Source: an uncultured Actinomycetota bacterium (GTDB taxonomy: Bacteria; Actinomycetota; Thermoleophilia; RBG-16-64-13). Taken from it: a stretch of 64,000 nucleotides of DNA. Position 1 is the first letter of the stretch. Each line of letters starts with the position of its first letter. The notes below the pieces were generated by a model that saw nothing but the letters and a program-made list of their open reading frames with translations, did not search any database and had not been told where the DNA came from. This document shows, piece after piece, positions 8,476 through 51,905 of the stretch. The position numbers were made by a program, and so were the translations under genes. The DNA is taken from contig CAWDOM010000005.1 in the NCBI GenBank assembly GCA_963803925.1, positions 5,088 to 69,087 on the forward strand, given 5' to 3'.

Positions 8476-9474
<999 letters not shown>

Positions 9475-13125: not shown

Positions 13126-13716
13126 ATGTCGGTGTATTCGCTCGCCCGCTGGATGAGTCTGATTGGGCTGCGCATCTTCTTCAGGATGAGAATCGCGTTC
13201 GGAGAGCGCATCCCGCCGAGCGGCCCCCTCGTCGTCGTGGCCAATCACGAGAGTCTGCTCGACGCGTTCGTCGTCGCCGCCACGCTGCACCGGCAGGCGA
13301 CCTTCCTTTCCGCGCCCCGTCTGTTCAGCCTTCCGGTGGTGGGCTCGTTCCTGCGCCGGGTGGGCGCCCTCCCCGCGTACGGTCAAGGCGATGACGTGGC
13401 CAGCCTTCGCGAAGCCATCCGCATCCTACAGAAAGGCGGCGTGGTGGTCGTGTTTCCTCAGGGAGGCATCGCACGCGCCCCGTTCTTCGGGGGAGCTGTC
13501 TTTCTGGCCATCAAGGGGCAAGCGCCGCTCGTTCCCATACGTATCCTGGGCACCAAATGCGCACTGCCTCCCGGACGCATGTGGCCGTCGTTGTTTGCCC
13601 CCATCACTGTGAGCGTGGGACCGCCGATACCGCCCGCTGACCTGTGCGGGCCCGGCACACGCACCGGTGTGGCCGTAGCTGAAGGCAGGCGACTACTCAC
13701 GGAGCTTCTGAGCTGA
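13126..13716 (+). CDS. lysophospholipid (1-acyl-sn-glycerol-3-phosphate) acyltransferase family protein
   Basis: HX4D motif (VVANHESLLD) and an FPQGG block; 196 aa. Confidence 0.8.
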   Translation: MSVYSLARWMSLIGLRIFFRMRIAFGERIPPSGPLVVVANHESLLDAFVVAATLHRQATFLSAPRLFSLPVVGSFLRRVGALPAYGQGDDVASLREAIRILQKGGVVVVFPQGGIARAPFFGGAVFLAIKGQAPLVPIRILGTKCALPPGRMWPSLFAPITVSVGPPIPPADLCGPGTRTGVAVAEGRRLLTELLS

Positions 13717-16075: not shown

Positions 16076-16076
16076 C

Positions 16077-30351: not shown

Positions 30352-31872
30352 TTACACCGACGGGTTCGCCACCGAGTTGGGGTCGAACGCGTCCTCTATA
30401 GCGATCGCCCAGCGGTCAAAGCCGCTGTAGAGTGGTCCGTCCATTCTCATGCCTTCCCGGTCTCGGCGCGGCATCGCGGCGTGGCGACCGGCCTGGATGT
30501 CGTCGGCTGCCGACTTGGCCATCAAATCGCGAGGAATGCTCGGCCAACCGGGGGAGGCAAAGTCCCAGACGAACAACAGCTCGATATGGGCCATGTGGCC
30601 GTATTCAATCGTGTTGATCTGGAAGTTTTGTGGCGCGTCGAGGATCCGCCCGCTCTCGATGAACTGTTCCAACATCGGCGGTATGGCCTTGGCAACCTCG
30701 AACATGTGGCTCACCGAATCGGCGCTGAGTTTGTTCGGCGCCCAGCCGCCCCCGAGCCGAAGAGTGCGCTGAAGGAAACTGACGATGATGAAGAAGTCCA
30801 TGTTGTCTTCGTACATCTGCCGGATGGCCTCGTCCACCGGCTCGCCGCCCATCTCCGAGACGATCTCCTTGAGTACGCGTTCCTCGTACTCCATCTCCTC
30901 CTCGGACCAGGTGGCAAGATAGACGTAGAGGGGGTAGCTCAGCTCCCGCTGGAACCACCCGCTGTTCCATAGCTCCCAAAACTCGTTCGCCGACTTCGAG
31001 TGAAGCAGAGCGGCAGTGGCGTTGAAGAACTTGAGCACCGCGTACCCGATCTCTGCCCGGCCGATCTCGAGCATGGCGTCGCGCACCTTGTCCAGGTCGG
31101 GGAACTTGAACACGAACACCCGGTGACGATCCTTGGGCAGACGGATCTTGAAGCTCGGCGTGTGTCCCTCGGCCGGCATCACCTCGGGCTGCTTGGTAGC
31201 GTCGAGCCCGATGGCGATCCTCGTGATGATCCCCATCCTGCCGAAGCTGCCGATGTAGCCTTTTGCCAAACCGCGCAGACTGGGACCCGGTCCCTCCGGA
31301 CAGAACCAGCCTGCGCCTGTCCCGAGGGAGCCTGTTTGCACCAGCTCGCCGGTAGGAGTGACCCACTCGACGCCCAGAAGGTAGCGATTGGTGCGAGAGG
31401 TGCCGTGCTGGCAGTGATGATCGCCCGAGGTGACGGTGAAGTTCGCCAGCACCGACCCGCCCGGCCCGACCGACGCCACCGGGTACTGGAGTCCCAGCTT
31501 CATGAGCTCCGGCTTCAGTTGGCAGTGCCGCACCCCCGGCTCTATCACCGCGTACCGGTCGGTCTCGTTGATCTCGACGATGCGGTTCATGCGCTTGAGG
31601 TGAAGCACGATCGTGCCGAGCGAGTGAGGATAGGCCTGTACCGAGAGACCGGACACCGTGGCGACGTACCTGATGCGGTAGAGATTGCAGAGTCTCACGA
31701 TCGCTTGGACCTCTTCAGTGCTGGCAGGTAGCAGGACCGCCTCGGGGCTGGGTGACAAGGGAGCGTGCGGACCGGAGCGCCGATAGCCGGAGAGGATGTA
31801 GGGCAACTCGCTGATGTACTCCGGGCCGACTATGCTCTCGAGCATGCTGTAGATGTGGCGGGGCAGGGTCAT
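30352..31872 (-). CDS. FAD-linked oxidase (FAD_binding_4), third gene of a GlcD/GlcF/GlcE-like trio
   Basis: Intact 506-aa ORF; PEAVLLPASTEEVQAIVRLCN.... Confidence 0.8.
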   Translation of the reverse strand: MTLPRHIYSMLESIVGPEYISELPYILSGYRRSGPHAPLSPSPEAVLLPASTEEVQAIVRLCNLYRIRYVATVSGLSVQAYPHSLGTIVLHLKRMNRIVEINETDRYAVIEPGVRHCQLKPELMKLGLQYPVASVGPGGSVLANFTVTSGDHHCQHGTSRTNRYLLGVEWVTPTGELVQTGSLGTGAGWFCPEGPGPSLRGLAKGYIGSFGRMGIITRIAIGLDATKQPEVMPAEGHTPSFKIRLPKDRHRVFVFKFPDLDKVRDAMLEIGRAEIGYAVLKFFNATAALLHSKSANEFWELWNSGWFQRELSYPLYVYLATWSEEEMEYEERVLKEIVSEMGGEPVDEAIRQMYEDNMDFFIIVSFLQRTLRLGGGWAPNKLSADSVSHMFEVAKAIPPMLEQFIESGRILDAPQNFQINTIEYGHMAHIELLFVWDFASPGWPSIPRDLMAKSAADDIQAGRHAAMPRRDREGMRMDGPLYSGFDRWAIAIEDAFDPNSVANPSV

Positions 31873-31875
31873 GTG

Positions 31876-33141
31876 CTACCTCTCTTCGCCGTCGGCCAGT
31901 GCCGCTGCTACGAGATCGGCCAGGTCGTGATACGCAAGCGAATCGTCGTGGCCCAGGCTCTCCCGGCAGAACGGGCAACACGAGACGAGGCCGTCGGCCC
32001 CGGTGGAACGCGCCTCCCTCAGCCTTTCGTCGGCGATCCAGGCGGCGAGTTCGGGGCGGGCGGCAGCGACGCCGCCGCCCGCCCCGCAGCAGTACCCGCA
32101 CTCCTGGTTCCGCACCATCTCTACGAACTCCACCCCGGGCAGGCTCCGCAGCACCCGGCGGGGGGCATCGTAGACGCCGTTCGTCCCGCGCCGCCACTCC
32201 TTGGGCGGCTCGTGGACGCCGTACGGCTTGATCTCGCCCTGCCAGGGCACGTATTTCTCGCCGAGGCGAGCGAGAAGACAAGGATCGTGGTAGGTGAAGG
32301 TCCTCTCCGGCCCTGTCTGCCTCAGAGGAAGCCGCTTCTGGTCGAGAAGCTGATCGATGACCTCGCTGATATGGACGACCTCGATGTCGTCCATCTGTTC
32401 CACTCGTGGATAGCCGCCACGGAACGTGCCGTAGCACTCGGCGCATCCCGTGATGATCTTCTTGACCCCGTGCCGTCTGAAGGCCCCGAGGTTCCGGTGC
32501 ACGCTCGCCGCGAACGCCTCGTTCTGGCCGGTGCGCCAGAGCGTTGCCCCGCAGCATGCCTCGTCGGGGCCCAGCAACCGGAAGTCCACGCCCCCCGCCG
32601 CCAGGATGCGCATGATGCTCTGCGCGGTTTCGGGGTATCGATATGCCGTTGCGCAGCCGACGAAGTAGACGGTCGACCCGGCCTCCGCGGTCGTCGCCTC
32701 CGCGCCCAGCCACGCAAAGCGCTCCTCGTGCGGCAGACCGTAGATGTTGTTCTCCCGGGCCACGTTGTCGGCCTCCGCCCGGTGTTGGGGAAGTGGGCCC
32801 TGGCCTTCGGCGACGCAGTGCGCTCGCAAGGCAAGGATGGTATCCATGACCTCCATGTCGCGCACCGACTTGCAGTTCAGCTCGCAGGCACCGCACGTGG
32901 TGCAGGAGTAGATGAGGTCGACGAGCCCCGGCTCGTACGCGAGCGTTCCCTCCAGGAGTTCCTGGGCGATGTTGAGCAGGCCCTGGCCTGAGTACGTGTC
33001 GTAGTGGAATCGCTGATGGATCGGGCACACCTCGGCGAAATCCCAGCCCCTCATCTTGGGTCCGAGTATCCACTTGCACTGCCCACAGTGGTTGCACGAC
33101 AGCATCGTGTGCCGGAAGTCCCTCAACTCATCCACCCGCAT
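31876..33141 (-). CDS. (Fe-S)-binding CCG-domain protein (GlcF/HdrD-like)
   Basis: CNHCGQC, CTTCGACELNC, ACCGA and YCCGAGGG motifs. It overlaps the upstream gene by 14 nt. Confidence 0.85.
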   Translation of the reverse strand: MRVDELRDFRHTMLSCNHCGQCKWILGPKMRGWDFAEVCPIHQRFHYDTYSGQGLLNIAQELLEGTLAYEPGLVDLIYSCTTCGACELNCKSVRDMEVMDTILALRAHCVAEGQGPLPQHRAEADNVARENNIYGLPHEERFAWLGAEATTAEAGSTVYFVGCATAYRYPETAQSIMRILAAGGVDFRLLGPDEACCGATLWRTGQNEAFAASVHRNLGAFRRHGVKKIITGCAECYGTFRGGYPRVEQMDDIEVVHISEVIDQLLDQKRLPLRQTGPERTFTYHDPCLLARLGEKYVPWQGEIKPYGVHEPPKEWRRGTNGVYDAPRRVLRSLPGVEFVEMVRNQECGYCCGAGGGVAAARPELAAWIADERLREARSTGADGLVSCCPFCRESLGHDDSLAYHDLADLVAAALADGEER

Positions 33142-34642
33142 CCTCCTGGAAACAGAGCTTGCCGGGATTGAGGATGTACTTCGGGTCGAAAATGTCCTTC
33201 AGCTTGCGAAGCGCCGCGACCCCCTCGCCGTACTCTCCGTAGACCATCGACGCCCAGGGACCGTAGGGCCGGCTGAAGAAGGCGCCGCCCGCCATCAGTT
33301 CCCGCGACGCCTCGAAGAACATCTCGCGAACGAGTTCCGTTTCCCGGGAGTCGGTATCGTCAAAGAACAGGTCGAATTCGCTGTGACAGCCCCGACCCTG
33401 CACGCACGGCTGGATGTAGGCCCCGACGCTCTCCGCCGCAAAGCCGAACTTCGCCCTTGTCCGCTCCATGATGGCGGCGAGATCGGCCACCTTGCTGAAC
33501 GGGGACAGGTAGAAGATCTCTCTTACCGATCCCCTCGGGCGCAGCTTCCAATAGGGCGTCCGGTAGTCCGGTTGGCCGAGCATGGCGAGGATCGTCTCCT
33601 CACGCCCCGAGACTCCGCGCAGGGTGGTGCTCGGGCTCAGTCCCAAAGACGCGCACTCCTCCAGGAGGTACTTCTGCTGGATAGCCACCCGTTCATCGGG
33701 ATGCCGCCGGTAGCCGGCGAGCACCACGAGAGCCGTCCAGGCAGGCAGGGTGGCGCGCAGTTCGACGTAGTCGTCCGGCCACCGCTCGGCCAGCCGACCG
33801 GCCAGCCCGACGTTGCTCAGCACCAAGCATTCGTCGCCGACCCGCTTGCGCAACAACTGGTTCATCAGTTCGGTGAGCACGGCGAGGTCCTCCGCGGGCA
33901 CGAAGTAGAGACGCTGCAGATCGGGCAAGATCTCCGCCTTGGTGACCGCCCAGGTGACGAGGCCCATCGTGCCCTGCGCGCCGGTGAGGAAGCGGAGGTA
34001 GTCTATGGCGCCCGGTCCCCAGGGGTTCACCTTGTCGGCCGTCAGCTTCTGCAGCGACCCGGGGCCGGAGGCCGAACCGGTACGGAACTCCTCGCCGTTG
34101 CCGTAGATCACCTCCACGGTCAGCAACGGGTCGCTGTAGTCATACTGGTACTTGGGGATGACCACCGGTTCCCGCTCCAGCCGGCTGGCGACGACCGACT
34201 TGCAGGCGCGGGGCAGAAGCGGCGCATCCAGCCGCAGGCCCTGGCTCCGCACCGCAGGCACCAGTTCGCCATACGTGACCCCCGGCTCGATCATCACGTA
34301 CCGGCCCGGCACGTCCACCTTCAGCACCCGATTCATCCGGCGAAAATCCACCATCACTCCGCCCTGCGCCGGCCGGCTGCCTCCGTGGAAGTGAGGCGGA
34401 CCTGAGCTCACCGGCACGAGCGGCACGTTCTCGACATTCGCCTGCCGCACGATCGCCTGGACCTCAGCCTTGTCGACGGGCTGCAGGGCCAGTAACGGCT
34501 GGGTTCCGGGGGCGAAGGTGTGCGCGCGGTCATACTGCGCCAGGGCCTCCCGATCGTTGGTGACCCGATCGGGCGGGAGGGCGCCGGCAAGCACGACGCC
34601 TGCGGCGGAGTCTGGTCTATCTAGCGACATAGAGACATCCAT
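33128..34642 (-). CDS. FAD-linked oxidase (FAD_binding_4)
   Basis: Intact 504-aa ORF; QPVDKAEVQAIVRQANVENVPLVPVSSG. Confidence 0.8.
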   Translation of the reverse strand: MDVSMSLDRPDSAAGVVLAGALPPDRVTNDREALAQYDRAHTFAPGTQPLLALQPVDKAEVQAIVRQANVENVPLVPVSSGPPHFHGGSRPAQGGVMVDFRRMNRVLKVDVPGRYVMIEPGVTYGELVPAVRSQGLRLDAPLLPRACKSVVASRLEREPVVIPKYQYDYSDPLLTVEVIYGNGEEFRTGSASGPGSLQKLTADKVNPWGPGAIDYLRFLTGAQGTMGLVTWAVTKAEILPDLQRLYFVPAEDLAVLTELMNQLLRKRVGDECLVLSNVGLAGRLAERWPDDYVELRATLPAWTALVVLAGYRRHPDERVAIQQKYLLEECASLGLSPSTTLRGVSGREETILAMLGQPDYRTPYWKLRPRGSVREIFYLSPFSKVADLAAIMERTRAKFGFAAESVGAYIQPCVQGRGCHSEFDLFFDDTDSRETELVREMFFEASRELMAGGAFFSRPYGPWASMVYGEYGEGVAALRKLKDIFDPKYILNPGKLCFQEDAGG

Positions 34643-34844: not shown

Positions 34845-36905
34845 TACAGCGTGTTCCCGACCGTCCAGCCGGCCGACATGGCTTCGGGGATGGTCGCCGG
34901 GCTATCGCAATCCCCGATGGCATACGTTTCGGGCACCATGCCTTTAATCTCGTCGAGCAGGAGGGTGTTGGGCGCAAACGGGAGGACGGGTATCACGTTG
35001 TCGGCCCTCGAGCAGCCGCGTCTGCCCCTCCTTCGTCTGGACGGTCAGCCCCTGTTTGTCGATCTTCACGAGCTTCACGCCGCTGAGGACCTCCACGCCC
35101 TTCTTGTCGAACCAGTAGAGCAGGCGCACCTTGCGATCGGGAACCAGTCCGTCCCCCACCTTCTGGCCGGTGTCGACGATGGTAACCGCGCGTCCACGCT
35201 TCACCAGAAACTCACCCAACTGGCAGCCCTGGATGGCGGCGCCGATGATCACCACGTTCCGGCCCACGGGCATCCAGAACCTGGTGAGCGACCTGAGCAG
35301 CCTGGGTCCGAAGAGCCTGAGGAAGAACCGGAGCGTCCCGTAGAGGTCGCTCGTCTTGATGACGTTCTTGCCGTCGATGCCCGCCACATCTGGTAGCACC
35401 GGGGAGCCACCCACTGCGATGACGACCGCGTCGGCCTTGAACTCCTTGAGCGCCTCGAGGCTGAACTCCTTGCCGAGCTTCACCTCGACGCCCGCGGCCT
35501 TCACCCGGTTCTCCATGAACTCGATGTACTCCGGCAACTGCTCGACGTCGAAACCCTTCACCATGGCGGCGAGCGGCGTCGAGCCACCCAGGTAGCGGCC
35601 CTTGTCCCAGAGTGTGACCTCGTGACCCCGCGAGGCGGCGATGCGCGCCGCCTGCATGCCGGCGGGTCCCGCGCCGACCACGAGCACCCGCTTCTTCGCG
35701 ATGAGCGGCGACAAGTCGTAGTGCGCCTTGCCGAAAGAGGCGTTGACGCGGCAGTACCGCGGCTCGTTGTACTTGATGGTGCAGCATCCGCAGCGCGTGC
35801 ACGGTTGGATCTCGGCGGACCTGCCTGTGCGCACCTTGTTGGGGTACTCGGGATCGGCGAAGAGCCGGCGGTTGAGGCCGATGAGATCGGCTTTGCCGCT
35901 GCCAATGATGGTCTCGCCCAGGTCGGCGTCGAGCATGCCGACAGTCATCACCGGAAGGGAGACTGTGTCCTTGATGATGGCGGCGAGTGGCACCAGGGAG
36001 GCGGTGCCCCTGCGGCTCCAATCCATATCCTTCGGGAACTCGCCTACGGGGATGTGCGGCTCGGGGTAGAAGAGGCTCTCATGCCCGTGATGCGCGGCGG
36101 ACCAATGGCCACGCACCTGCAGCGAATCGACGCCGATCGCTTCGTAGATGCGGGCGATCTCCTTGCCCTCCTCGATGGTAAGGCCACCCGGCACCCCGAA
36201 CTCCATGGCGTTCATGAGGATCTGCACGGGGAAGTCCTGCCCGCAACGAGCTTTGACCTCTTTGATGACGTCGACGATGAACCGCGAACGGTTCTCCATA
36301 CTCTGCGGGCCGTACTGGTCGTCGCGCGTGTTCCAGGGACGCGAAAGGAAACTGTGGAAGAGATGGTCGGCGGCGGCATTGATCTCGATGCCGTCCCAGC
36401 CGGCCTGCTGCAGCCGGGCGGCGCCGGACGCGAACCGGTCGACCAGTCCCTCGATCTCGCCGATGGTGAGAGCGCGGGGTGGCGCATCCTCGTGTATGTC
36501 GAAGGGAGAGCCGAAGACGATCGGAGACGATGACACCCGCTCGGCGGCGAGCACGTAGGGGCCGCCCCAATGGGCGCGGTGGTAGAGCTGGGTGAAGATC
36601 GGCACGCCGTGCTTGTGCACTTCGGCCGCCAACTCCTCGAGCTGCTTCAAGTACTTGTCGTCGTCGATGCGGAAGCGCCGGTCGTTCTCCTCCCAGAGCG
36701 GCCACTCCATGGCGGGCGTCTCGGTGATGATGAGCCCCACCCCTCCTCGCGCCACCGCCCCGTAGAAGCCCTTGGCAATGGCGCCTACGCGCTCCGCGCC
36801 CGATTCAAAGAAGTAGGTTTGCGCCGCCGTCTTCACGATGCGGTTCTTCAGGCGCACTTTGCCGATGTTGAACGGCGAAAACAGCTCCCGGTATCGACTC
36901 TCCAC
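34845..36905 (-). pseudogene. OYE-type flavin oxidoreductase fused to an FAD/NAD(P) domain (enoate-reductase family); single frameshift near 34985
   Basis: GTG at 36905 follows AAGGAG. ORF 34944..37028 ends in nonsense (..LLEGRQRDTRPP). The -1 frame continues ADNVIPVLPFAPNTLLLDEIKGMVPETYAIGDCDSPATIPEAMSAGWTVGNTL to a TAG at 34845-34847. The switch sits at a GGG run. Confidence 0.8.
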
Positions 36906-37048
36906 TACTATTTCTCCTTGTGCTTGCCCCGACAAAGGACGATTCTCGTGCAAACGATACACCTGCGGCTGCTTCGCCTCTCGTAGCCGGCATTTGTCTC
37001 TTCGTCGATGACGCACGGGACCGCTCATCCCCCAGAGGCCGCCGTGAT

Positions 37049-40202: not shown

Positions 40203-41362
40203 CTACAGAGCCGCCCGCACAATGACCTGCAACTCGGACGCGGTGAGCTCCACCGGATTCGCCTTCATGCTGCTGGCCCGCATGGCCTTTTCGACCAGTT
40301 CGTCCACGTCGCCCGGGCTGAACCCGTAGCTGCCCAGCTTCGGGATGCCGAGGTCGGACGTCAACCGCGCCAGCCAGGCCACGGCGGCGTCGGCGTCATC
40401 GCCGGCGGCGGCGCGTCCGGTCAGCAGCCGCGCCACTTCGTCGTAGCGCGCGAGCGCCCCGCTCTCGGGCGCTCGCGCCCGTAGCGCCGCCAAGTTGACC
40501 GCCACCACATGCGGCAGCAGGGCCGCGCACACGGCGCCGTGCGGCGCCGTGATCATTCCTCCCAACGGGCCGGCGAGGCCGTGCACCGCTCCCAGCCCCG
40601 CGTTGGCAAGCGCCAAGCCGCCGAACAGGCTGGCAACCGCCATGTCGTCGCGGGCGGCGGCGTCGCGGCCGTGGGTGTAGGCGCGCCGCAGGGAGCGCGC
40701 CACCCGCACCATGCCTTCGCGGCAGAGGCCGTCGGTCAAAGCATTGGCCTTGGTGCAGACAAACGGCTCGACCACTTGGGCCAGAGCGTCGAGACCGGTC
40801 GCGGCCGTCACGGCGGGCGGCAGATCGTAGGTGAGCTCCGGATCGACTATGGCGACCGCCGGCAGCATCATCGGGCTGCGCAGGCTCACCTTCACCCGCT
40901 GCCGCCGCGCGATGATCACCGAGTTGCGCGTCACCTCCGAGCCCGTGCCCGCGGTCGTGGGTATGGCCATCACCGGCAGCGGCCGTTGGGTCACCGGCTG
41001 GTTCTCGCCGACGACTTCGAGGTACCGCATGAGCCGGCCGGGGCTGGTCGCCATGACCGCGATCGCCTTGGCCGCGTCGAGCACGGCCCCGCCGCCGAAG
41101 GCCACGACGCAGTCACACCGCTCGCGCCGCGCCACCCCGGCGCCGGCTTCGACGGTGTCGATGTCGGGCTCGCCCGTCACCGAGTAGGTCACCGTCGGAA
41201 GTCCCGCTCCGGCCAACACGGCGAGCAGGGGTGCGGCCCGCGCGCTCGTCCGCCCCGTCACCACCAGCGGCCGCGCGCCCAGCGAAGCCGCGATCGTGCC
41301 GGCTTCGCGCAGCGTCCCCCGCCGAAGACTATGCGGCCGGCGGTGGCGAACTCGAAGCGCAT
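40203..41362 (-). pseudogene. iron-containing (group III) alcohol dehydrogenase; one frameshift near the 5' end
   Basis: The ATG at 41362 gives MRFEFATAGRIVFGGG, then shifts in a C5/G5 run to ...TLREAGTIAASLGARPLVVTGRTS (ORF 40203..41264). Also AFGGGAVLDAAKAIA and PTTAGTGSEVT. Confidence 0.8.
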
Positions 41363-41689: not shown

Positions 41690-42337
41690 CTACTGGGTCT
41701 CGTCGCCCGCCCCTTCTCTCCGCGCCTTCTGCACAGTCTCGGCCCTTTCGATGGAGGCGTACCCGTAGCGCTCGACGGTGTTGCGCAGCACCGCTTCGGC
41801 CGGGTTTTCTCCCGCGGCGGCCATCTGCTGGTAGTGCTCTTCGAGGAGCTTCAGGGTCTTGGCGCTGTAGGAAGCCAACTCACCCCGGTTGTAGCTCTCG
41901 AACGAAGTGACGTACTTGTTGTCGCCGGTCGACCGCACCGGCCGCCCCTGGCCGGCCACGTGGGGGTACTTCGCCGCCAGCTCCTCCTGCCACTGCACCA
42001 ACATGCGCGTCAAACGCTCCACGAGATCCTCCGCCTCAGGCTCCAGCCGCGGGAGTTGGGCTTCGATGCGCCGGAACTCGCACGGCGACGTGTACTGCAT
42101 CATCCGCCCGTACTTCTCGGTCATGAGGTTGCGGTCGCGCTCGCGCGCGGCGTGCAGATCGTCGAGGTAGCCGGCGGCCACCTCGTCGTTCCACGACATG
42201 ATCTGACTCGAGCGCATGACCTCGAAGGTCTGGGGGCTCTGCTGGCACGACACCGGACCATCCATGCTCTGCACACTCGAGAACATCTCCCACTCGAGGC
42301 GCACGATTTCGTCGACGAGATTCTGATCAACAGCCAT
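41690..42337 (-). CDS. DUF4125-like all-helical protein
   Basis: GGAGAG upstream of the ATG at 42337. Segments: EWEMFSSVQSMDGPVSCQQSPQTFEVMRSSQIMSW...; RPVRSTGDNKYVTSFESYNRGELASYS. Confidence 0.65.
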   Translation of the reverse strand: MAVDQNLVDEIVRLEWEMFSSVQSMDGPVSCQQSPQTFEVMRSSQIMSWNDEVAAGYLDDLHAARERDRNLMTEKYGRMMQYTSPCEFRRIEAQLPRLEPEAEDLVERLTRMLVQWQEELAAKYPHVAGQGRPVRSTGDNKYVTSFESYNRGELASYSAKTLKLLEEHYQQMAAAGENPAEAVLRNTVERYGYASIERAETVQKARREGAGDETQ

Positions 42338-42348
42338 GGTTCTCTCCA

Positions 42349-43299
42349 CTATTCCATCATTACGGGCAGGTTGCGTAGCGCGTCGTTCTCGATGCGGGTC
42401 TGCACCGAGTAGGCGTGATCGAGCAGAAAATCGCTCGGCGAGTCGCTCAGACCTTCAGAGGTGAGACGGCCGACGAGAAGCGCGCTGATGTCTTCGACGA
42501 TTCTTGCCTGCTCGGTCAGCGCCGTTGGAGGCGTCGCCTGGCCCGGCCGGCTGCACAGGCGGGCCAGAAGCTCGTGCACTTCGCTGCCCAACACCGGGAG
42601 ATCGACGAGCCCGCGGTGCATCCACTTGTAGAAGGGCCGGTACCTCTTGTTGAGCAGGTAGACGACCGAGATCACCGCCTCGATGAACTGGCTGAGCCCG
42701 ACAGTGAGCCGCGACGAGGTCGCCCCGGTCGATCGAGCGCTTGAAGTTGTACTGTCCGGCCTGCCCCGCGGTGAAGCACCGGGCGGCCAGCTTCTTGAGC
42801 TGCAGGTCGCGCGGGTAGAAGGCGAGCAATCCTTCTCGAAACGCCGTGAACTCCCCCAGCGGGTCGGTGAAGACCTTGCCGTTGGTCGCCGTGGCGAGGT
42901 AGGTCTCGGGCAGCGCCCGCCACTCGGCGAGCGTGGCCGGCACGTGGTCGTAGCGGACGAACCGGCGGTAGAAGTCGGTGATCTCGAAGACGCCGGTGCG
43001 TCTGCCGGCGACCCACCGACTCGCTTCGGGGGCCGAAGCCGCCGAAGGCCTTGGGCAGTGACGTCGTAGGCACGCTGCAGCTCCGCGCCGAAGCGTTCGT
43101 GGTCGGCCGCGGTCAGCCAGAGGCAGAAGCCCGGGCCCCAGTCGTGGTCGCGCGAGATCTCGTCGTCGAAGCCGAAGCACTCCGAGCCTTCACCCACGAG
43201 ACCCACGGCGATGCGCTTCTGGTCGGCCCAGAAGTCCTCGGCCAGCATCGGGCGGCCGACCTCCTCGAAGTACCGCTCGGCGAGTTCGAGGCCCTTCAT
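42349..43299 (-). pseudogene. DUF4037-type nucleotidyltransferase-fold protein, 2 frameshifts
   Basis: MKGLELAERYFEEVGRPMLAEDF...GLVGEGSECFGFDDEISRDHDWGPGFCLWL (GS..DxD signature of the Pol-beta nucleotidyltransferase superfamily). The middle part is in ORF 42455..43180 (VFEITDFYRRFVRYDHVPATLAEWRALPETYLATATNGKVFTDPLGEF...). Confidence 0.65.
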
Positions 43300-43312
43300 C
43301 ACCGCGCGGGCT

Positions 43313-44188
43313 TCAAGCGTCGCCCCCGGGGCCGCCACCGGCCGTGCCGCCCTCCGGGCCGCCGCCCGCCGCCTGACTCAGCTTCTCGCGGGTGCGGGCC
43401 AGGTTCTTGCTCGTGCGCGCATAGTCGGGGTGCTCGGTGCCCAGCACCCGCTCGATCATGGCGAGCGCCTCGGCGAAGTGCGCCTCGGCACGGACATAGT
43501 CGCCCGCCACGAAACTGGCGGCCGCCAGGTTGTTCAGCCCGGTGAGGTACAGCACCGTGTCTTTGCCGGCGGTCTGCCCGTAGATGTCGAGTGTCTCGCT
43601 GAGAAACTCCGCGGCCTGCCCGTGCTGGCCTGTCGCCATAGCCACCGAGGCCAAGTTGTTGAGCGTGGTCGCGTAGGCGGTGTCGCGCTTGCCGCTCTTC
43701 CGCAGCACGGCCAGCGCCTGCTCGTGCAGCCGGCGCGCGTCGTCGTAGCGCTTGAGATCCTGGTAGACCAGGCCGAGATTGTTGAGCGCGCTCAGGTAGA
43801 CGAAGTGCTCGGCGCCGACGGTGCGCTCGTAGATGTCCATGGACTCCTTGAAGAGCGCCTGGGCCTTCTCGAACTCGCCCATGAGCCGGTAAGTGCCCGC
43901 CAAGTTGTTGATGGTGGTGGCGTAGTCGGCGTTTTCTTCGGCGCCACGGGCCCGGCCTTCGATGCCGGCCGCTTCGACGAAGGCCTCCTCCGACTCGGGG
44001 AGTCTCTTGAGAGCCCTGAGGAGCGACCCCAACTCGTTGAGGGCGGCGACGTAGAGCGCCGAATCGACCCCTGACTCCTCGCGGGTGAGCTCAGCGTACT
44101 CGCGCTGCAGCGGAACGATGTCGGGCAGGCGCCGCTGCTCTTCGAGGGCGGCGATGCGCGCCTTCAACTGGTCGAGTCTGTCAGTCAC
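43313..44188 (-). CDS. tetratricopeptide-repeat protein (TPR_10/12 type)
   Basis: GTG start 7 nt after AGGAG. Repeated ...A.(T/L)LNNLA..Y...G.Y..A units. Confidence 0.8.
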   Translation of the reverse strand: MTDRLDQLKARIAALEEQRRLPDIVPLQREYAELTREESGVDSALYVAALNELGSLLRALKRLPESEEAFVEAAGIEGRARGAEENADYATTINNLAGTYRLMGEFEKAQALFKESMDIYERTVGAEHFVYLSALNNLGLVYQDLKRYDDARRLHEQALAVLRKSGKRDTAYATTLNNLASVAMATGQHGQAAEFLSETLDIYGQTAGKDTVLYLTGLNNLAAASFVAGDYVRAEAHFAEALAMIERVLGTEHPDYARTSKNLARTREKLSQAAGGGPEGGTAGGGPGGDA

Positions 44189-44300: not shown

Positions 44301-45359
44301 CTACGCCAACCGGCGCAAGACCAGACTGGCCGACTGCACCCCCGGGCACGCCGTCCAGAGCGCGACGATCGAGTTTTTGGCGATCTGACCCGCCTCCCCC
44401 AGTTCCGCCAGGTCGACGAGTGGGTCGGCGACCGCCATGTTGCCGTACTTGGCTCGCAGGTTGCGGTAGGTGTCGGGGCTGAGTCCGGCCGCTTGCAGAT
44501 CTTCCCGCCACGCCGCCTCGAGATGACCGGCGTGGGAAGCGATAACCATGTCCAGGTCTCCCGGCGCCAGACCGGCCTTCTTCAAGGCCCTCGCGAGACT
44601 TTCGCCGAAGAAGCCCTTTCGACCCGCCACCTCGTCGAACGACGGATCGTCGAGAACCAGGTATGCCCCGTTCTTGTTCTCGACACCGGCCTTAGTCGCG
44701 AGATCTGGGTTGGCGAGGGGCCGCACCGGGCCGAAGTTGCCGTTGAGGGTCCCGCCGGGTCGAGACTTCACCGCGTAGGTCTCGACGTGGTAGGCGAGGA
44801 ACTCGCACGTGAGATTCCCGGCCGAGACGACGGCCGCGGCGGCGCCGTCACCGTAGTTGAGGGCGAGCGGATCGGTGAGGTCGACGCCGAACCCCACTTC
44901 TCCGCCGATCTGAGCCGCCACCGCTATCAGAAGAACCCGCCTGCACAGGCCGCTACGCACGGAGTTCCAGGCCACGAAGGCCGCGTCGAGGATGCTCACG
45001 TTGTCGTCGACGATGTTACGCACGAGCGCGTCGCCGCGAAGCCCAAGATTGAGGTGAACGTACGAACCGAGCAGAGGCATGAATTGTTTGCCGCCGGTCT
45101 GGGCGATGAGCAGGCCGTCGACGTCGGAGGCGCTCAGTCCACTCTCGGCGAGCGCTTTGCGGCCGGCGCCGAGCGCCATGATCTCGGCCGCGCTGACGTC
45201 CTTCAGGCGCCGCACCTCCCGGGGCGCGTTCGAGCGCAGGCTTTGCTGGAGGGGCTGAGGCAGCTTCGCGATCGCGGGTTCCAGGTACGCGTAGTGCTCG
45301 TTCACGTTCAGCACCTCCGCGGGGAGGTACGCGACTGCCGTCTCGAATCCAACCTTCAT
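44301..45359 (-). CDS. FabH/KAS-III-like thiolase-fold protein, non-canonical subunit (active-site Cys replaced by Asn)
   Basis: The ATG at 45359 lies 2 nt after the upstream stop, with GAGGAGG inside that gene's 3' end. NIVDDNVSILDAAFVAW aligns with NIGNCCASFVDACQIAW of the neighbouring gene. His (SHAG) and Asn (YGNMA) are retained. Confidence 0.75.
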   Translation of the reverse strand: MKVGFETAVAYLPAEVLNVNEHYAYLEPAIAKLPQPLQQSLRSNAPREVRRLKDVSAAEIMALGAGRKALAESGLSASDVDGLLIAQTGGKQFMPLLGSYVHLNLGLRGDALVRNIVDDNVSILDAAFVAWNSVRSGLCRRVLLIAVAAQIGGEVGFGVDLTDPLALNYGDGAAAAVVSAGNLTCEFLAYHVETYAVKSRPGGTLNGNFGPVRPLANPDLATKAGVENKNGAYLVLDDPSFDEVAGRKGFFGESLARALKKAGLAPGDLDMVIASHAGHLEAAWREDLQAAGLSPDTYRNLRAKYGNMAVADPLVDLAELGEAGQIAKNSIVALWTACPGVQSASLVLRRLA

Positions 45360-45361
45360 GT

Positions 45362-46381
45362 TCAACGCGCCTCCTCGCCCAGCCACCGCAGAATCAGGCA
45401 ACCCAGGGAGATGCCCGAGCCGGGCACCCACAGCGCGACCACCGAGCCCGGTTTGACGAGCCCGTCTTCGACGAACTGAACCAGATCTGTCGGCAGATCG
45501 GTGTGGCCGGTGTTGCCCGTCTTCAGCCTCAGGTTCTGAAAAGCCTCCTCGCCCAGGCCGGCGTCCACGAGGTCCTGCTTCCAGGCCGCCTCGCAGTCGC
45601 CCAAATGGTGACAGATGACCAAGTCCAGCGCGGTGAGGGGCAATCCCGCTCTCGCCATCGCCTTCTCGAGGCTGTCTCGAAGGTATGCCGGCCGGCTCGC
45701 GACTTCGATGTAGGAGATGTCGTCCATGCAGAAGTAGGGCCCCACCCCGGACGGCACACCCGCCGCTTCCGCGAGCTCCGGATTGTCCAGAGGCCGCACC
45801 TCTCCCCGGGCGGAGCGGTAGCAGGTGCCGTCGGTCTCGCCGTAGTACGACAGGAACTCGCACATGAGGTTCTCGGAGGAGACGATGGCCGCCGCGGCGC
45901 CGTCGCCGAAGATGGGAGCGATGGCCATGGTGAGGTCGGTCGTGCCGCCGTTCGGCCCGCCCGCTAGGGCCGCCGAGGCCACGATCAACACCCGCTTGCA
46001 CGCGCCGCTCTCGACCAGGTTCCACGCGATCTGGCAGGCGTCGACGAAGCTGGCGCAGCAGTTGCCGATGTTGAGCATGGGCGTGTCGAGATCGAGCCCG
46101 AGTTCGCGGTGCAGGCTCACGGCGGCGCCGATAACGTAGTCGATGTCCGAGGGCGCCAGGCCGCCGCGGTCGAGCGCCTCTTGCGCTATCTCGATGGCCA
46201 TGAGCTCGGCTCTGTCGCCCTCCTTGCCCCGGTACTTGCGCACCTCGTCGGGCACGATGGAGAACTGCTCGCGCAGTTGCTCGGGGAGCTTCGCGAGCGC
46301 CGGCGCGAGATAGTCGAAGTGCTCCCTGGGGATCACTTCTTGGGGAAGGTGCCGCACGATGGTTTCGAAACCAACCTTCAT
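45362..46381 (-). CDS. FabH/KAS-III-like condensing enzyme with complete Cys-His-Asn triad
   Basis: NCCASF (Cys), ICHHLG (His), TGNTGHTDLP (Asn); 339 aa. Confidence 0.8.
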   Translation of the reverse strand: MKVGFETIVRHLPQEVIPREHFDYLAPALAKLPEQLREQFSIVPDEVRKYRGKEGDRAELMAIEIAQEALDRGGLAPSDIDYVIGAAVSLHRELGLDLDTPMLNIGNCCASFVDACQIAWNLVESGACKRVLIVASAALAGGPNGGTTDLTMAIAPIFGDGAAAAIVSSENLMCEFLSYYGETDGTCYRSARGEVRPLDNPELAEAAGVPSGVGPYFCMDDISYIEVASRPAYLRDSLEKAMARAGLPLTALDLVICHHLGDCEAAWKQDLVDAGLGEEAFQNLRLKTGNTGHTDLPTDLVQFVEDGLVKPGSVVALWVPGSGISLGCLILRWLGEEAR

Positions 46382-46423
46382 TCTTGATTCACTCCCGATG
46401 ACCGTGTTTCTCGCGACCCATGA

Positions 46424-47182
46424 CTACGTCATGCCCGAGATGCGGATGCACTGACCGACGATGTGTCTGGAGACGTCCGACACCAAGAAGGCCACCAGAT
46501 TGCCGATGTCTTCGGGCGTGATGGTCTTGCCGGCCGCGTCCAACTCGGCGGCGTGGGCGATGTACTCGTCGGAGAAACCGCCGGCCGAGGCCAAGAAGTC
46601 GGTGTTGCCCAGCCCCGGCGCGATGCAGTTGACGTTGATGCCCGAGTCGGCCACTTCGAGCGCGAGGCCGCCGCTGAAGTTGATGATCGCCGCCTTGGTC
46701 GCGCCGTATACACTGCCCAGAGGAACGCTGATGACGCCGGCCACTGAGGCCATGGTGATGATCTTGCCCTGGCCGCGCGCCAGCATGTGCGGCAGCACGG
46801 CCTGGCTGCAGTACATGGTGCCGCGCAGGTTGGTGTCGAGACTGCGGTCCCACTCGGCCTCGGTCGACTCGACGAACGGCTTGCGCGGAGTGCCGACACC
46901 GGCGTTGTTGACCAGGATGTCTACCTTCTCGAACTCTTCGAGACAGCGAGCGACCATGCGCTTGACGTCGTCACCGCTCGTGACGTCGGTCTTCACCGCC
47001 ACTGCTCTACGCCCCAGCTCGCGCACCGAGCCGGCCGTCAGTTCGGCCCCGTCGAGATCGATGTCGCTGACCAGAAGGTCGCAGCCCTCGGCGGCCAGCC
47101 TCAGCGCGATGCCGCGGCCGAACCCTTTCTGGCTGCCCGCTCCTGTCACAATGGCGACTTTGCCGCCGAGCGCTAGATCCAC
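46424..47182 (-). CDS. short-chain dehydrogenase/reductase (FabG-like)
   Basis: GTG at 47182 after GAGGAG gives VDLALGGKVAIVTGAGSQKGFGRG, NNAG and YGATK. Confidence 0.8.
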   Translation of the reverse strand: MDLALGGKVAIVTGAGSQKGFGRGIALRLAAEGCDLLVSDIDLDGAELTAGSVRELGRRAVAVKTDVTSGDDVKRMVARCLEEFEKVDILVNNAGVGTPRKPFVESTEAEWDRSLDTNLRGTMYCSQAVLPHMLARGQGKIITMASVAGVISVPLGSVYGATKAAIINFSGGLALEVADSGINVNCIAPGLGNTDFLASAGGFSDEYIAHAAELDAAGKTITPEDIGNLVAFLVSDVSRHIVGQCIRISGMT

Positions 47183-47372: not shown

Positions 47373-47696
47373 ATGGAGGTTCTCGTGAACGCATCAAAAC
47401 TGTACGTGGGCAATTTCAGCTACGAGATGACCGAAGCCGGCATCCGCACGCTCTTCGAACCGCATGGCGAGGTGACCTCGGTCAGTCTCATCACCGACCG
47501 CGACACCGGCCGCTCCAAGGGATTCGGTTTCGTCGAGATGGCATCGGCTGACGAAGCCCAGAAGGCCAAGACCGCCCTCGACGGCACCCAGGTCGACGGT
47601 CGCGCGCTCAAGGTCGACGTGGCCAAGGAGAAGGAAGCCCGCGCTCCTCGCTCAGGTGGCGGCGGCTACGGTGGCGGCGGCGGCAACCGCTGGTAG
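47373..47696 (+). CDS. RRM-type RNA-binding protein with Gly-rich tail
   Basis: RNP2 LYVGNF, RNP1 KGFGFVEM, tail GGGGYGGGGGNRW. Confidence 0.85.
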   Translation: MEVLVNASKLYVGNFSYEMTEAGIRTLFEPHGEVTSVSLITDRDTGRSKGFGFVEMASADEAQKAKTALDGTQVDGRALKVDVAKEKEARAPRSGGGGYGGGGGNRW

Positions 47697-49289: not shown

Positions 49290-50394
49290 TCAGCGTATGT
49301 ACAGGTCAGGCCGCCCGTGGGCGAACATCTCGTCGATGGGCATCGGGGTGGGCAGCTTGTAGAGCCGGGCCGCGTTGCCGCCGACGATCAGGTTGATCTG
49401 GTCTTGGGTCGCGAGGTTCAGATCCTTCAGGCGGTGGATCTGGTGGGTGGCCCAGCCGTACCAGTCGGGCAGGTAGGGCAGCTCCTCGGGCTGGTTGTCG
49501 GCAGGCCAGGTCGTCCGGTTGAAAAGCACTTGGTGCTCGTTGAGATACTTGGCCGCCGGCCTCAGCGCATGGTGCATCCAGATGCGGCTACCCGTGTCGC
49601 CCGCCTCCCCAGATGAGGCGCTTGCAGGTGACGTTCTGGTCGTGGATGGCCATCTCGTAGTGCTCGGCTTTCCAGTAGCCGGTTTCGAGATATACGTTGG
49701 GGAAGGAGCTCGCGAACTGCATCGCTTCGCGTATCTCGTCTTCTGACTGGCCGCCGCCATGGTTGATGAGCACCTTGCAGCTCCGGGTAGGCGCAGCAGG
49801 TCATGCCGAGCACGTCGAACGCTTCGCTGGGGCGAATGCCCATGCGCATGGCCCCGTACCCTCCGTACTCGTGGAAGTGCACGCACACGTTGTGCTTGAT
49901 CGCCAGCTCGGCGATCGCCGACCATTCGTCCAGACCCGCTGCTCGTAGCTCGGCGGTCTGCGGACGGTGCCCATGCACCCCGGAGCGAACTCGCCGATTC
50001 CCACGAACACGTCGGGCTCGGCGGTAACGGCCTCGTCGATCTCCTTGATGGCCGCCTCAATGGTCCATTCGGTTTCGCCCCGGGCGGCCTTGATTCGCTG
50101 CGTCGTATCCATGATGCAGGTGCGAAAGCGGTCGGGGCGCTTCTTCACCATGTCGCCGTAGAGTTCTTTGGTCGTGCCGGTGAAGCTCGGCAGAAGGATT
50201 CCCATGTCGATGCCGTAGGCGTCCATGTCGAAGACGGCCCAGTCGGAGCTGTCGACACCGATGACCTCTCCCCCGGCGAAGGTCGGCAGCTTCGCCTTCG
50301 CGGCGGGTGTGTCCTCGCTGCCGGCCTGCGGCGCCTTGTGGTCCTTCTTGCCGCAATGGATGTGACCGTCAACGACGAATCTACCGATCTTCAT
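49290..50394 (-). pseudogene. Amidohydro_2 paralogue 2, at least 3 frameshifts
   Basis: MKIGRFVVDGHIHCGKKD... (inside ORF 49801..50871), then ORFs 49562..49978, 49588..49773 and 49290..50060. GAGGAGGGA upstream of the ATG at 50394. Confidence 0.8.
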
Positions 50395-50422
50395 CCCAGT
50401 CCCTCCTCTCTTCAGCAGGCTC

Positions 50423-51137
50423 CTAGACCCCGAGGTACGCCTTCTTGACGATGTCGTTGCGGGCCACGTCTCGCGGCCGGGCCCTCCAGAACGATGGACC
50501 CCACCTCCAACACGTACGCCCTGTCGCTCAGGGCAAGGGCCATGGTCGCGTTCTGCTCCACGAGGAGCACGCTCAGTCCTTGCCTGCGGATCATCGACGA
50601 TGATCTGCGCGACCATCTCGACCATGATCGGCGACAGACCCATGCTCGGCTCGTCCATGAGAAGCAGCTTCGGCTTGCCCATGAGCGCCCGGGCGACCGC
50701 CAGCATCTGCTGCTCGCCACCGCTCAGGCTTTCGGCCAACTGCTTGCCCCGTTCCTTGAGAACCGGGAAGTGGTCGTATATGTCGTCCAGGTCTCGCCGG
50801 ACCTCAGCCTTGTCCTTGCGGAGGTAGGCACCCATGCGCAGGTTGTCGGTGACCGTCATCGGGCCGAACACGATCCTGCCTTCGGGAACGTGACCGATGC
50901 CCTTCTTGACCAGCTGCGTGACCGGGAAGCCGATCTACGCGCTCGCCGTCGAACGGGATCTGACCCCCGATTCGATGTACTTGAGGGCGGAGATGCTTCG
51001 TGAGGAGCGTGGTCTTGCCCGCCCCATTCGCTCCGATGAGCGCGACTACCTCCCCCTCGGCCACGTTCAGGCTGATGCCTTTCGAGCGCCTGGGCCTTAC
51101 CGTAGTTGACCACCAGGTCCTTTATCTCAAGCAGCAT
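50423..51137 (-). pseudogene. branched-chain-amino-acid-type ABC transporter ATPase (LivF-like), multiple frameshifts
   Basis: Segments: MLLEIKDLVVNYGKAQAL; GEVVALIGANGAGKTTLL; RSISALKYIESG; QIPFDGERV; IGFPVTQLVKKGIGHVPEGRIVFGPMTVTDNLRMGAY; LSGGEQQMLAVARALMGKPKLLLMDEPS; ends ..VARNDIVKKAYLGV. Confidence 0.75.
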
Positions 51138-51905
51138 CGAAGGTCCCCTTGCCGAGGTAGGCGGCGCAGACTTCACGATCGTTGCACACCGTCTGGGCGT
51201 CTCCCTCGGCTATCTTCTCGCCGTAGTTCAGCACCACTATCCTGTCGCAGACGTCGATCACCACCCTCATGTGATGCTCCACGAGCATCACGGTGATGCC
51301 CCGCTCGCGGATCTTGCGGATGATCTGAACCATCACCTTCGATCTCCGTCGGGTTCATGCCGGTGACCGGCTCGTCGAGGAGCAGGAGGCGAGGATCGGC
51401 GGCGAGCGTGATGCCCACGCTCAGCAGCCGCTGGTGCCCGTGCGAGCAGGTTGGCCGCCAGTTCGTCCTTGAGATGGGTGAGCCGTACGAAGTCGAGAAT
51501 CTCCAGGGCCTCTGTCTTGAAGGCCGCCTCTTCGGCCCGCGCCGTCTTCGTGTAGAAGAAGCTTTTCGTGAGACCCACGGAGCGGTTGCGGTGGAAACCG
51601 ACGATGACGTTCTCGAGCGCCGAGATGTTGTCGAACAGCACTGAGTGCTGGAACAGCCGGGCGACACCGCGCTTCGCGACCGCAAATGCCGGCACGCCTA
51701 CCAGGCTGCTCCCCTCAAAGAGAATCTCGCCCGTGGTCGGCTTCTGAAAGCCGCTGATCATGGTGAAGACGGTGGACTTACCCGCTCCGTTGGGTCCGAT
51801 GAGTCCCATGATCTCGCCCTCATTGACGTCCATGTCAAGGTCTTTGACCGCGGATAGTCCGCCGAACCGCTTGGTAAGGCCCTTGGTTTCCAGGATCACG
51901 CTCAT
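51127..51905 (-). pseudogene. ABC transporter ATPase (LivG-like), 2-3 frameshifts
   Basis: Segments: MSVILETKGLTKRFGGLSAVKDLDMDVNEGEIMGLIGPNGAGKST; SHGHQRLLSVGITLAADPRLLLLDEPVTGMNP; GITVMLVEHHMRVV. Confidence 0.75.

Follow-up and report, generated by a model that had tools for sequence, protein, structure and literature searches.

A rare, co-inherited pair of paralogous KAS III-fold genes with complementary losses: a candidate heterodimeric FabH-like enzyme in an uncultured actinomycetotal bacterium

We analysed a 64,000-nt stretch of DNA from an uncultured Actinomycetota bacterium (assembly GCA_963803925.1, contig CAWDOM010000005.1, positions 5,088 to 69,087 of the forward strand), hereafter referred to as the window, in which three minus-strand genes lie head to tail in a block at 44301-47182. 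The first of them encodes a short-chain dehydrogenase/reductase (SDR), and the two others encode proteins with the fold of beta-ketoacyl-ACP synthase III (KAS III; ACP, acyl carrier protein), which we call alpha and beta. The genes of the block and the sites within alpha and beta on which the argument turns are the following, in window positions:

46424..47182, minus strand: SDR gene, 252 aa, GTG start at 47182, first gene of the three-gene block
45362..46381, minus strand: alpha, 339 aa, KAS III-fold subunit with the full Cys-His-Asn set
44301..45359, minus strand: beta, 352 aa, ATG at 45359 and stop at 44301, KAS III-fold subunit without the nucleophile and the catalytic His
46055..46057, minus strand: codon of alpha Cys109, the predicted nucleophile, in the column of the FabH active-site Cys (E. 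coli Cys112)
45608..45610, minus strand: codon of alpha His258, catalytic His column, aligned with E. coli FabH His244
45512..45514, minus strand: codon of alpha Asn290, the triad Asn, its GNT motif aligned with the GNT of FabH
46106..46129, minus strand: alpha residues 85-92 (GAAVSLHR), site of an 11-residue deletion at which the Phe87-type loop of FabH is gone
45370..45376, minus strand: GAGGAGG, ribosome-binding site of beta, within the last codons of alpha and 10 nt before the beta ATG
45072..45101, minus strand: beta loop Gln87-Leu96 (QTGGKQFMPL), counterpart of the cross-interface Phe87 loop of FabH
45000..45002, minus strand: codon of beta Asn120, placed in the nucleophile column by alignment
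44532..44537, minus strand: codons of beta Ser275 (catalytic His column) and His276, placed by alignment
44439..44441, minus strand: codon of beta Asn307, placed in the triad Asn column by alignment

The alpha stop codon (TGA, 45364-45362) is followed by AC and then by the ATG of beta. A spacing of 2 nt between the two genes, and a ribosome-binding site of the second inside the first, had been pointed out in a preliminary description of this DNA, and both were confirmed from the sequence, the site being the GAGGAGG at 45376-45370. GAGGAGA precedes the GTG of the SDR gene. All three genes of the block are intact, unlike many split-looking genes of the window.

Both proteins fit the KAS III (FabH-like) branch of the thiolase-fold superfamily by their Pfam domains and by their predicted FabH-like fold. 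In alpha, ACP_syn_III and ACP_syn_III_C both scored above the cut-off; in beta, ACP_syn_III_C did so, and ACP_syn_III reached 20.8 bits, under the 24-bit cut-off. The two proteins are 44% identical to each other end to end (E 1e-79), and their AlphaFold2 models (predicted local distance difference test, pLDDT, 88.4 for alpha and 91.1 for beta) matched FabH, PqsC and OleA chains in Foldseek with template modelling (TM) scores of 0.73-0.80. The top match of alpha was PqsC (6et2_A, TM 0.80, 21% identity), chains of FabH, PqsC and OleA were the best matches of beta, and OleA chains were among the top matches of both models. The proposal that the two genes are thiolase-fold paralogues is thus borne out by domains, identity and models.

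The pair is not the housekeeping FabH. The TIGR00747 (fabH) profile, with a cut-off of 292.1 bits, gave alpha 67.5 and beta 47.2 bits, and PRK09352 (fabH), with a cut-off of 249, gave 71.0 and 40.5 bits. The pattern of FabH proper, in which every subunit has the triad and a Phe87-type loop, is found in neither protein, as alpha is without the loop and beta is without the Cys and the His. Another contig of the host (G000:C12:177-1147) carries a fabH-like gene of its own, broken by a frame change. The Arg249 of E. coli FabH is an ACP-docking residue, and its position is occupied in alpha by Cys263. No ACP, AMP-ligase or coenzyme A (CoA)-transferase domain was detected in the window open reading frames (ORFs) that were scanned. 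A PlsC-type acyltransferase is encoded about 30 kb off, at 13126-13716. The earlier remark that no ACP, CoA ligase or acyltransferase is encoded nearby was thereby confirmed.

To place the catalytic residues, we aligned alpha and beta to solved FabH chains with HMMER and among their relatives with MAFFT, with the E. coli FabH numbering counted from the printed alignment. Alpha Cys109, His258 and Asn290 correspond to Cys112, His244 and Asn274 of E. coli FabH, and all three are invariant in the 12 alpha-type sequences in which invariance was counted. Cys109, which had been recognized previously as the retained nucleophile in the motif NCCASF, is the second residue of an invariant doublet, Cys108-Cys109; His259, Cys263 and His293 are also invariant in 12/12 sequences.

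The picture in beta is different in two of the three columns. Among the 19 homologues of the beta alignment set, the nucleophile column (Asn120 here, in the motif DDNVSI) holds Asn in 16, and Asp, Thr and Gly once each, and Cys in none; the Asn proposed at this position is thus indeed there, though it is not universal. The triad Asn (Asn307 here) is kept in 17/19, again as proposed. However, the claim that beta retains the His did not hold. The catalytic His column, occupied by Ser275 in this protein, contains Pro in 12 homologues, Ser in four, Ala in two, Cys in one, and His in none, whereas the conserved His of beta (His276, 19/19) stands one residue later, aligned with alpha His259 and with Gln245 of FabH. 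The predicted secondary structure of both models agrees with this register. Judging from the alignments, beta is better termed Asn-Ser-Asn, with a His one residue out of register, than Asn-His-Asn.

A second, reciprocal difference lies in a loop. Set beside solved FabH chains, alpha is 10-11 residues shorter in the stretch that joins the fourth strand to the next helix; against B. subtilis FabHA the gap covers 11 residues (pdqsfptvscm), and it is common to all nine alpha rows of the alignment that we call A3. The missing segment holds the Phe-Pro motif, Phe87-Pro88 of E. coli FabH. In the E. coli enzyme, Phe87' of the adjacent monomer packs on the substrate inside the tunnel of the partner and sets a limit to its size (PMC12625853). 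In beta, this loop is present as the motif Q-[TS]-G-G-[KR]-Q-F-M-P-L in 19/19 sequences, with Met94-Pro95 falling on the Phe-Pro of B. subtilis FabHA and of FabH-like rows. Fourteen more distant single-gene relatives combine both elements in one chain: the loop in 14/14, the His in 14/14, and the Cys in 13/14. As far as these alignments go, the losses of the two subunits are complementary, with the triad present only in alpha and the cross-interface loop only in beta.

The phylogeny fits a common origin of the two subunits. In a maximum-likelihood tree of 49 rows, from which fragments below full length had been excluded beforehand and none was dropped after selection, beta formed one clade (support 100/100), alpha formed another (98/93), and alpha and beta together formed a third (95/83). 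Single-gene forms, including the protein P0036, fell outside the joint clade, which is nested among them. The simplest history would be a single duplication of a homodimeric enzyme, followed by complementary degeneration of the two copies.

The two genes are also inherited together. A metagenome scan gave nine loci, eight of which contain beta, and alpha, or its C-terminal end at a contig edge, was directly upstream of beta in all eight; the ninth locus (L091) had been listed for a weak 63-residue match in a 278-aa ORF and was judged unrelated. Because of this order in 8/8 metagenome loci, the pair is far from a chance arrangement. In addition, 17 pairs of alpha and beta clusters have longest contigs of identical size, which we used as a proxy for a shared contig.

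Both subunits appear to be under purifying selection. We estimated dN/dS by the Nei-Gojobori method against metagenome loci, with dS near saturation, so that the values are rough: they were 0.08-0.12 for alpha (three comparisons) and 0.13-0.14 for SDR, and among five comparisons of beta they were 0.10-0.18 in the three least diverged and 0.30 in the fourth, one being saturated. Since these values are well below 1, beta is not a decaying copy. It is also full length, with 69 invariant columns among the 19 homologues, which reach down to 47% identity. That beta is a functionless duplicate on its way to loss, as the absence of two of the three triad residues might suggest, is hardly credible; it is kept at every locus examined, and the conservation data contradict such a reading.

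Members of the family are very scarce. When 5.77 billion protein clusters were searched by a word index, 46 beta family members were returned at E ≤ 1e-53, self included, and 49 members of alpha at E ≤ 1e-30, and a full hidden Markov model scan of 1.84 billion representatives returned 32 at E ≤ 1e-30. The source names of these members are generic except for Dehalobacter sp. DCM, a Lachnospiraceae metagenome-assembled genome and Paraburkholderia caffeinilytica; the last label belongs to the single-gene relative P0036, and the other two are Bacillota. Dehalobacter sp. DCM is the source of the protein UWG99054.1. In all, the clusters number roughly 45 for alpha and 35 for beta. Two alpha homologues (P0254 and P0255) are carried in two complete genomes. 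The pair was not found in 400 sampled genomes of the host phylum or in 400 of the host class, the latter sample covering the genus of the host with 15 genomes and its family with 60. A profile search of genome contigs with the mixed alignment and the pattern [FYL]GDGAAA[AV][IV][VI] found only ordinary FabH genes (22-30% identity), tblastn against plasmids gave no match, a protein atlas search returned generic KAS III clusters only, and a search of sequencing runs listed one DNA run with 0.08 of the words and no RNA run. The pair-bearing metagenome loci (L083-L090) range from 48% to 67.5% G+C. This range and the scattered source names, taken with the fact that the pair was not found in the host's sampled relatives, fit a patchy distribution with horizontal spread.

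The surroundings of the block tell a different story from the block itself. When a 19.9-kb DNA query was compared with the 15 same-genus genomes, 150 matches were listed, with 273 more, and none of the 150 listed fell on alpha or beta. Within the block, only the SDR gene had a same-genus counterpart among the matches listed (75% nucleotide identity, in the genome G511). The downstream genes, coding for a tetratricopeptide repeat (TPR) protein, DUF4037 and DUF4125 proteins and an iron-containing alcohol dehydrogenase (Fe-ADH), recur in same-genus genomes at about 68-72% nucleotide identity, and the upstream ferredoxin-amidohydrolase-ABC transporter-IclR cluster recurs in the genome G481 at 78%. 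As the flanks are native and no listed match lies on alpha or beta, the SDR-alpha-beta segment looks like an acquired block in native surroundings. Both flanking groups were considered as parts of the module and rejected, as they recur in same-genus genomes without the pair.

Several observations concern these native genes in their own right. The starts and stops of the TPR, DUF4037 and DUF4125 trio (41690-44188) overlap, and the trio is found in several same-genus genomes at about 70% nucleotide identity. The segment 47883-56900 encodes a 2Fe-2S ferredoxin, an Amidohydro_2 protein, a Liv-type ABC transporter, a second Amidohydro_2 protein and a divergent IclR-type regulator; it is syntenic with G481:C1:76786-85798 (78% nucleotide identity) and probably serves, independently of the FabH-like pair, the uptake and the decarboxylation or hydrolysis of an aromatic acid. 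Between the block and this segment, on the plus strand (47373-47696), is a gene for a small RNA-binding protein with an RNA recognition motif, of which the host and its relatives have several copies per genome (72-83% nucleotide identity).

Elsewhere in the window, proteins with FAD_binding_4 and CCG/4Fe-4S domains are encoded twice (14765-17282 and 30352-34642), as are flavin reductases of the old yellow enzyme type fused to a Pyr_redox_2 domain (18269-20200 and 34944-37028). A catalase-peroxidase-type gene (Pfam peroxidase) runs off the window start (1-1826) beside a gene for a Fur-family regulator, in an organism that is otherwise anaerobic-looking. Split or truncated-looking genes were noted at 49801-51905, 1937-4300, 7090-8349, 9040-9474 and 40203-41264, and at G000:C12:177-1147. 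This set comprises LivG/LivF-type ATPases, a molybdopterin oxidoreductase, GcvT-like and NMO-like genes, the fabH-like gene of contig C12 (in two frames), and the Fe-ADH gene, which is without about 40 N-terminal residues. Such a set suggests that the assembly has indel errors or that pseudogenes are widespread.

The SDR is a generic classical member of its family (Pfam adh_short_C2, E 1.9e-58), and its size and N-terminus agree with those of 252-aa homologues in the metagenome locus L084 (81% identity) and in G511 (77%). An SDR gene or its remnant precedes alpha in all four loci that reach that far, namely the window, L084, L087 and L083. At L083 the last 38 SDR residues only (1261-1374, 97% identical) are directly before alpha, behind a gene of the metallo-beta-lactamase (MBL) fold, as the result of either a rearrangement or a chimeric contig.

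The SDR gene of G511 lies in a cluster of its own (L092, G511:C40:82000-97000), where it is found behind a gene for a GcvT-type folate-binding methyltransferase and in the company of ABM, aldo-keto reductase and ABC transporter genes. This cluster also encodes a Nuo51-like NADH-binding protein, a large Fe-S/flavin protein and two FAD_binding_2 reductases, with the ABC transporter, of the Liv type, adjoining, and looks like a folate-dependent demethylation and reduction unit. Aldo-keto reductase genes lie both next to L084 and next to the SDR gene of G511, but we rejected them as a shared part of the module, as they are only 35% identical.

The few informative neighbours of the pair point to catabolism. 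At L084, genes for a corrinoid protein and a methyltransferase of the uroporphyrinogen decarboxylase (URO-D) family adjoin the block on the opposite strand. At L087, a same-strand gene for a B12-binding protein abuts the start of the SDR gene, and beta is followed by a flavin-reductase gene. The single-gene relative P0036 is encoded in the genome G1153 between a gene for a VOC-type dioxygenase, accompanied by an unknown ORF, and a porin gene. Opposite to it are genes for a LuxR regulator, an FAD_binding_3 aromatic hydroxylase, an MBL hydrolase, a cupin and a major facilitator superfamily (MFS) transporter, with an insertion sequence fragment near. Two candidates from this locus were discarded: the 382-aa ORF upstream of P0036 matched no Pfam family, had no relative in the PDB and did not resemble KAS III, and its MBL-fold gene and that of L083 are unrelated beyond the fold. 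These clues put the family in the company of genes that deal with phenolic and methylated substrates.

The genome of the host itself gave eight URO-D hits and 13 B12-binding hits. Outside the window, on the host contig C8 (3163-12175, our locus L093), it has a cluster for a beta-keto acid cleavage enzyme (BKACE), a cupin, an SDR, a 3-hydroxyacyl-CoA dehydrogenase, a cyclase and an IclR regulator, together with large and small subunits similar to those of pyrogallol hydroxytransferase. This enzyme set equals that of the published phloroglucinol pathway (PMC10470551). Because of this complete canonical cluster, the host is a degrader of the gallate/phloroglucinol type. For the same reason, and because the SDR of the C8 cluster is only 37% identical to that of the window, a role of the pair in the phloroglucinol branch itself is unlikely, and the link to phloroglucinol ring opening drawn in the preliminary description is weakened.

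Few FabH-type systems with a catalytic and a non-catalytic subunit are available for comparison. One of them is PqsBC, the alkylquinolone synthase of Pseudomonas aeruginosa (PDB 5dwz, 6esz-6et3), which like alpha and beta is a FabH-fold pair encoded by adjacent genes. PqsBC is a heterodimer with one catalytic subunit, as alpha and beta are predicted to be. In PqsBC, the pocket of the catalytic subunit extends as far as the interface, and the partner forms part of it (PMC4807248). There are also differences. PqsC is described there as having a Cys-His dyad, with Val in place of the Asn (PMC4807248), whereas alpha keeps Asn290. PqsB is described as having no triad residues and a shortened C-terminal half, and as hard to align with PqsC (PMC4807248), whereas beta is full length, 44% identical to its partner, and keeps Asn307. 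In PqsBC it is the catalytic subunit that has, as an insertion, the long loop that links strand 4 to helix 3 (PMC4807248), whereas here the catalytic alpha has lost the loop and the helper beta keeps it. Neighbours of the pqsA, pqsD or pqsE type are not found by the pair, which has the SDR gene, corrinoid/URO-D genes and host-native genes beside it. Because alpha and beta are each other's closest relatives in the tree, their origin is independent of that of PqsBC.

LstAB, the KAS III heterodimer of lipstatin synthesis, is nearer in logic than PqsBC, with the triad in one subunit and an essential contribution from the other. LstA has the Cys-His-Asn set, LstB gives the essential Glu60, each subunit is insoluble alone, and the predicted interface is FabH-like (PMC12141560). 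LstA and LstB are only 23% identical (PMC12141560), compared with 44% for alpha and beta, and they belong to a natural-product cluster, in contrast to the catabolic setting here. The beta loop has Phe93/Met94 and no Glu in its motif, unlike LstB with its Glu60; a Glu at position 59 of beta is invariant.

In OleA, Glu117 is likewise a catalytic Glu supplied by the partner subunit. No OleC-type AMP-ligase, beta-lactone synthetase, nonribosomal peptide synthetase (NRPS) or AMP-binding gene was seen at the loci examined, and the reductase is a classical SDR. FabH itself is a symmetric homodimer with two active sites; alpha shares its triad, and the loop of beta is homologous to its Phe87 loop, but its fab/ACP context was not seen around the pair. 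The ketosynthase/chain-length factor (KS/CLF) of type II polyketide synthases (PKS) also combines a catalytic subunit with a paralogue without Cys, but the CLF has a conserved Gln and works with an ACP. KS/CLF belongs, moreover, to the KAS I/II branch (Pfam ketoacyl-synt), whereas the pair has only KAS III domains, and its beta column holds Asn, Asp, Thr or Gly.

The earlier statement that such pairs are known in very few contexts, with PqsBC among them, thus stands, except that its list omitted LstAB (PMC12141560). Our literature searches, on KAS III heterodimers with a non-catalytic subunit and on FabH-like enzymes in anaerobic degradation or the retro-Claisen direction, listed no paper on this family. 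By its sequence features, the pair qualifies as an independently evolved, new and putatively heterodimeric form of KAS III of the PqsBC/LstAB kind.

We favour, as on balance probable if only just, an obligate alpha-beta heterodimer of the FabH fold with a single composite active site, acting with the SDR on a beta-keto compound in a catabolic setting. What the data show is the make-up of the pair with its conservation, co-inheritance, rarity and origin in an inserted block; that the two proteins form a complex, that the loop plays the part described below, and that the enzyme has a thioester chemistry and serves catabolism is inferred. The heterodimer-style pairing of a catalytic with a non-catalytic subunit that had been proposed before is supported, indirectly, by gene order, coupling, purifying selection and complementary losses; the Asn-His-Asn label given to beta was wrong, at the His. 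In such an enzyme alpha would do the chemistry, with Cys109 being acylated and His258 and Asn290 polarising a thioester or a beta-keto carbonyl. Having lost the loop that FabH subunits push across the interface to wall the partner's acyl tunnel, alpha would have its substrate pocket completed by the QFMPL loop of beta, whose own pocket would be dead. Only the alpha-beta combination would have a complete active site, one per dimer. It would not use an ACP, and its substrate would be a CoA thioester, a free beta-dicarbonyl or a beta-keto acid. Together with the co-inherited SDR, which would interconvert keto and hydroxy groups with NAD(P)(H), it would form a two-step beta-keto module, in which alpha-beta makes or breaks the C-C bond beside the beta-keto group through an acyl-Cys109. 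The organisms would be anaerobes that demethylate and degrade phenolics, and in them a catabolic role is probable.

A number of points weigh against this interpretation. The argument for loop donation draws on alignments and on FabH structures, and His276 of beta, invariant and adjoining the catalytic column, may still reach the pocket, so that beta is perhaps not fully inert. Fused alpha-beta proteins were not found among proteins of 617-2000 aa, which is weak evidence. The SDR of L087 is different (about 31-32% identity) and not orthologous to that of the window, and the SDR gene of G511 occurs without the pair; because of both, the link to the SDR is loose, and the SDR is a frequent, not an obligatory partner. 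Informative flanks were available at three loci only, and corrinoid genes adjoin the pair at just two, which might be due to chance, as such genes are numerous in anaerobes of this kind. Finally, KAS III enzymes with His and Asn are normally decarboxylative condensers, which speaks for synthesis over cleavage. As to direction, the neighbours thus favour cleavage, and the His-Asn chemistry of KAS III favours condensation.

Two other readings differ in this direction. If cleavage prevails, the SDR and alpha-beta could be a hitherto unrecognised thiolytic C-C cleavage module of anaerobic phenolic catabolism, in which a KAS III enzyme, with an active site composed of two unlike subunits, runs in the retro-Claisen direction. 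After corrinoid-dependent O-demethylation and a reduction or oxidation by the SDR, Cys109 would attack a beta-diketone, a cyclic 1,3-dione or an aroylacetyl-type intermediate, and the acyl group would pass to CoA, so that the thioester would conserve the energy of the C-C bond, which is lost in the hydrolytic cyclohydrolase/hydrolase routes. We regard this specific version as unlikely. If condensation prevails, the pair could be a biosynthetic enzyme similar to PqsBC and LstAB, joining an acyl-CoA head to head with another acyl-CoA or a beta-keto acid, with the SDR reducing the beta-keto product to yield a small lipid or a signal molecule. Alpha has PqsC as its best structural match and the His-Asn pair typical of condensing KAS III, and both models have OleA chains among their top matches. 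A KAS III-type enzyme next to a reductase mirrors OleA/OleD, OleD being a reductase that acts on the beta-keto product after OleA. LstAB provides a precedent for a triad subunit and a helper making a condensing enzyme (PMC12141560). Nevertheless, no ACP, CoA ligase, OleC/OleB-type gene, NRPS/PKS or exporter was seen beside the block at the loci examined, its neighbours are demethylase parts and aromatic-catabolic genes, and the beta loop, with its Phe/Met, has no invariant Glu comparable to Glu60 of LstB. Biosynthesis is therefore possible but doubtful in our judgement.

Two further alternatives would do away with the composite site or with the generality of the substrate. Alpha could act as a normal homodimer and beta as a homodimer of its own, for example as a decarboxylase, similar to a chain-length factor with its Cys-to-Gln change, or as a ligand binder. 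The conservation of beta under purifying selection would be accounted for, as would the predominance of Asn in its Cys column (16/19) and the invariant His276, and, as PDB titles indicate, a Cys112-to-Gln FabH is a stable protein that was crystallised. However, an alpha homodimer would have no tunnel-lining loop on either side, beta is without the canonical His in 19/19 and varies between Asn, Asp, Thr and Gly at the Cys column, and the strict alpha-then-beta order (8/8) with the 2-nt spacing suggests equimolar co-production, so that we consider separate action improbable. Still less probable is a cleavage by the pair of dihydrophloroglucinol itself or of a poly-beta-keto acid that arises when the phloroglucinol ring is opened (triacetate or 3-hydroxy-5-oxohexanoate). 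The host has the pyrogallol hydroxytransferase and the phloroglucinol cluster, an SDR precedes the pair, and the phloroglucinol reductase is an SDR-family enzyme (PMC10470551). Yet contig C8 already provides the whole canonical pathway, with SDR, cyclase, 3-hydroxyacyl-CoA dehydrogenase and BKACE, the SDR there is the distant one mentioned above, and neither a cyclase nor a BKACE gene neighbours the pair at the loci that have it.

FabH-type heterodimers in which a single subunit works are known from only a handful of systems, PqsBC and LstAB among them, and the history of these is hard to read because their subunits are so diverged. With the 44% identity of alpha and beta, and with surviving single-gene relatives that have both features, the steps from homodimer to heterodimer become readable here: the interface loop would have gone from one copy, and the nucleophile and the His from its counterpart. 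The pair thus offers a clean test case for the origin of asymmetric enzymes by complementary loss. For the phloroglucinol branch, the routes described in the pathway report are hydrolytic and beta-keto-acid cleavage only (PMC10470551). If the catabolic role is true, the pair would add a thioester-conserving C-C cleavage step to the anaerobic degradation of polyphenols and methoxy-aromatics.

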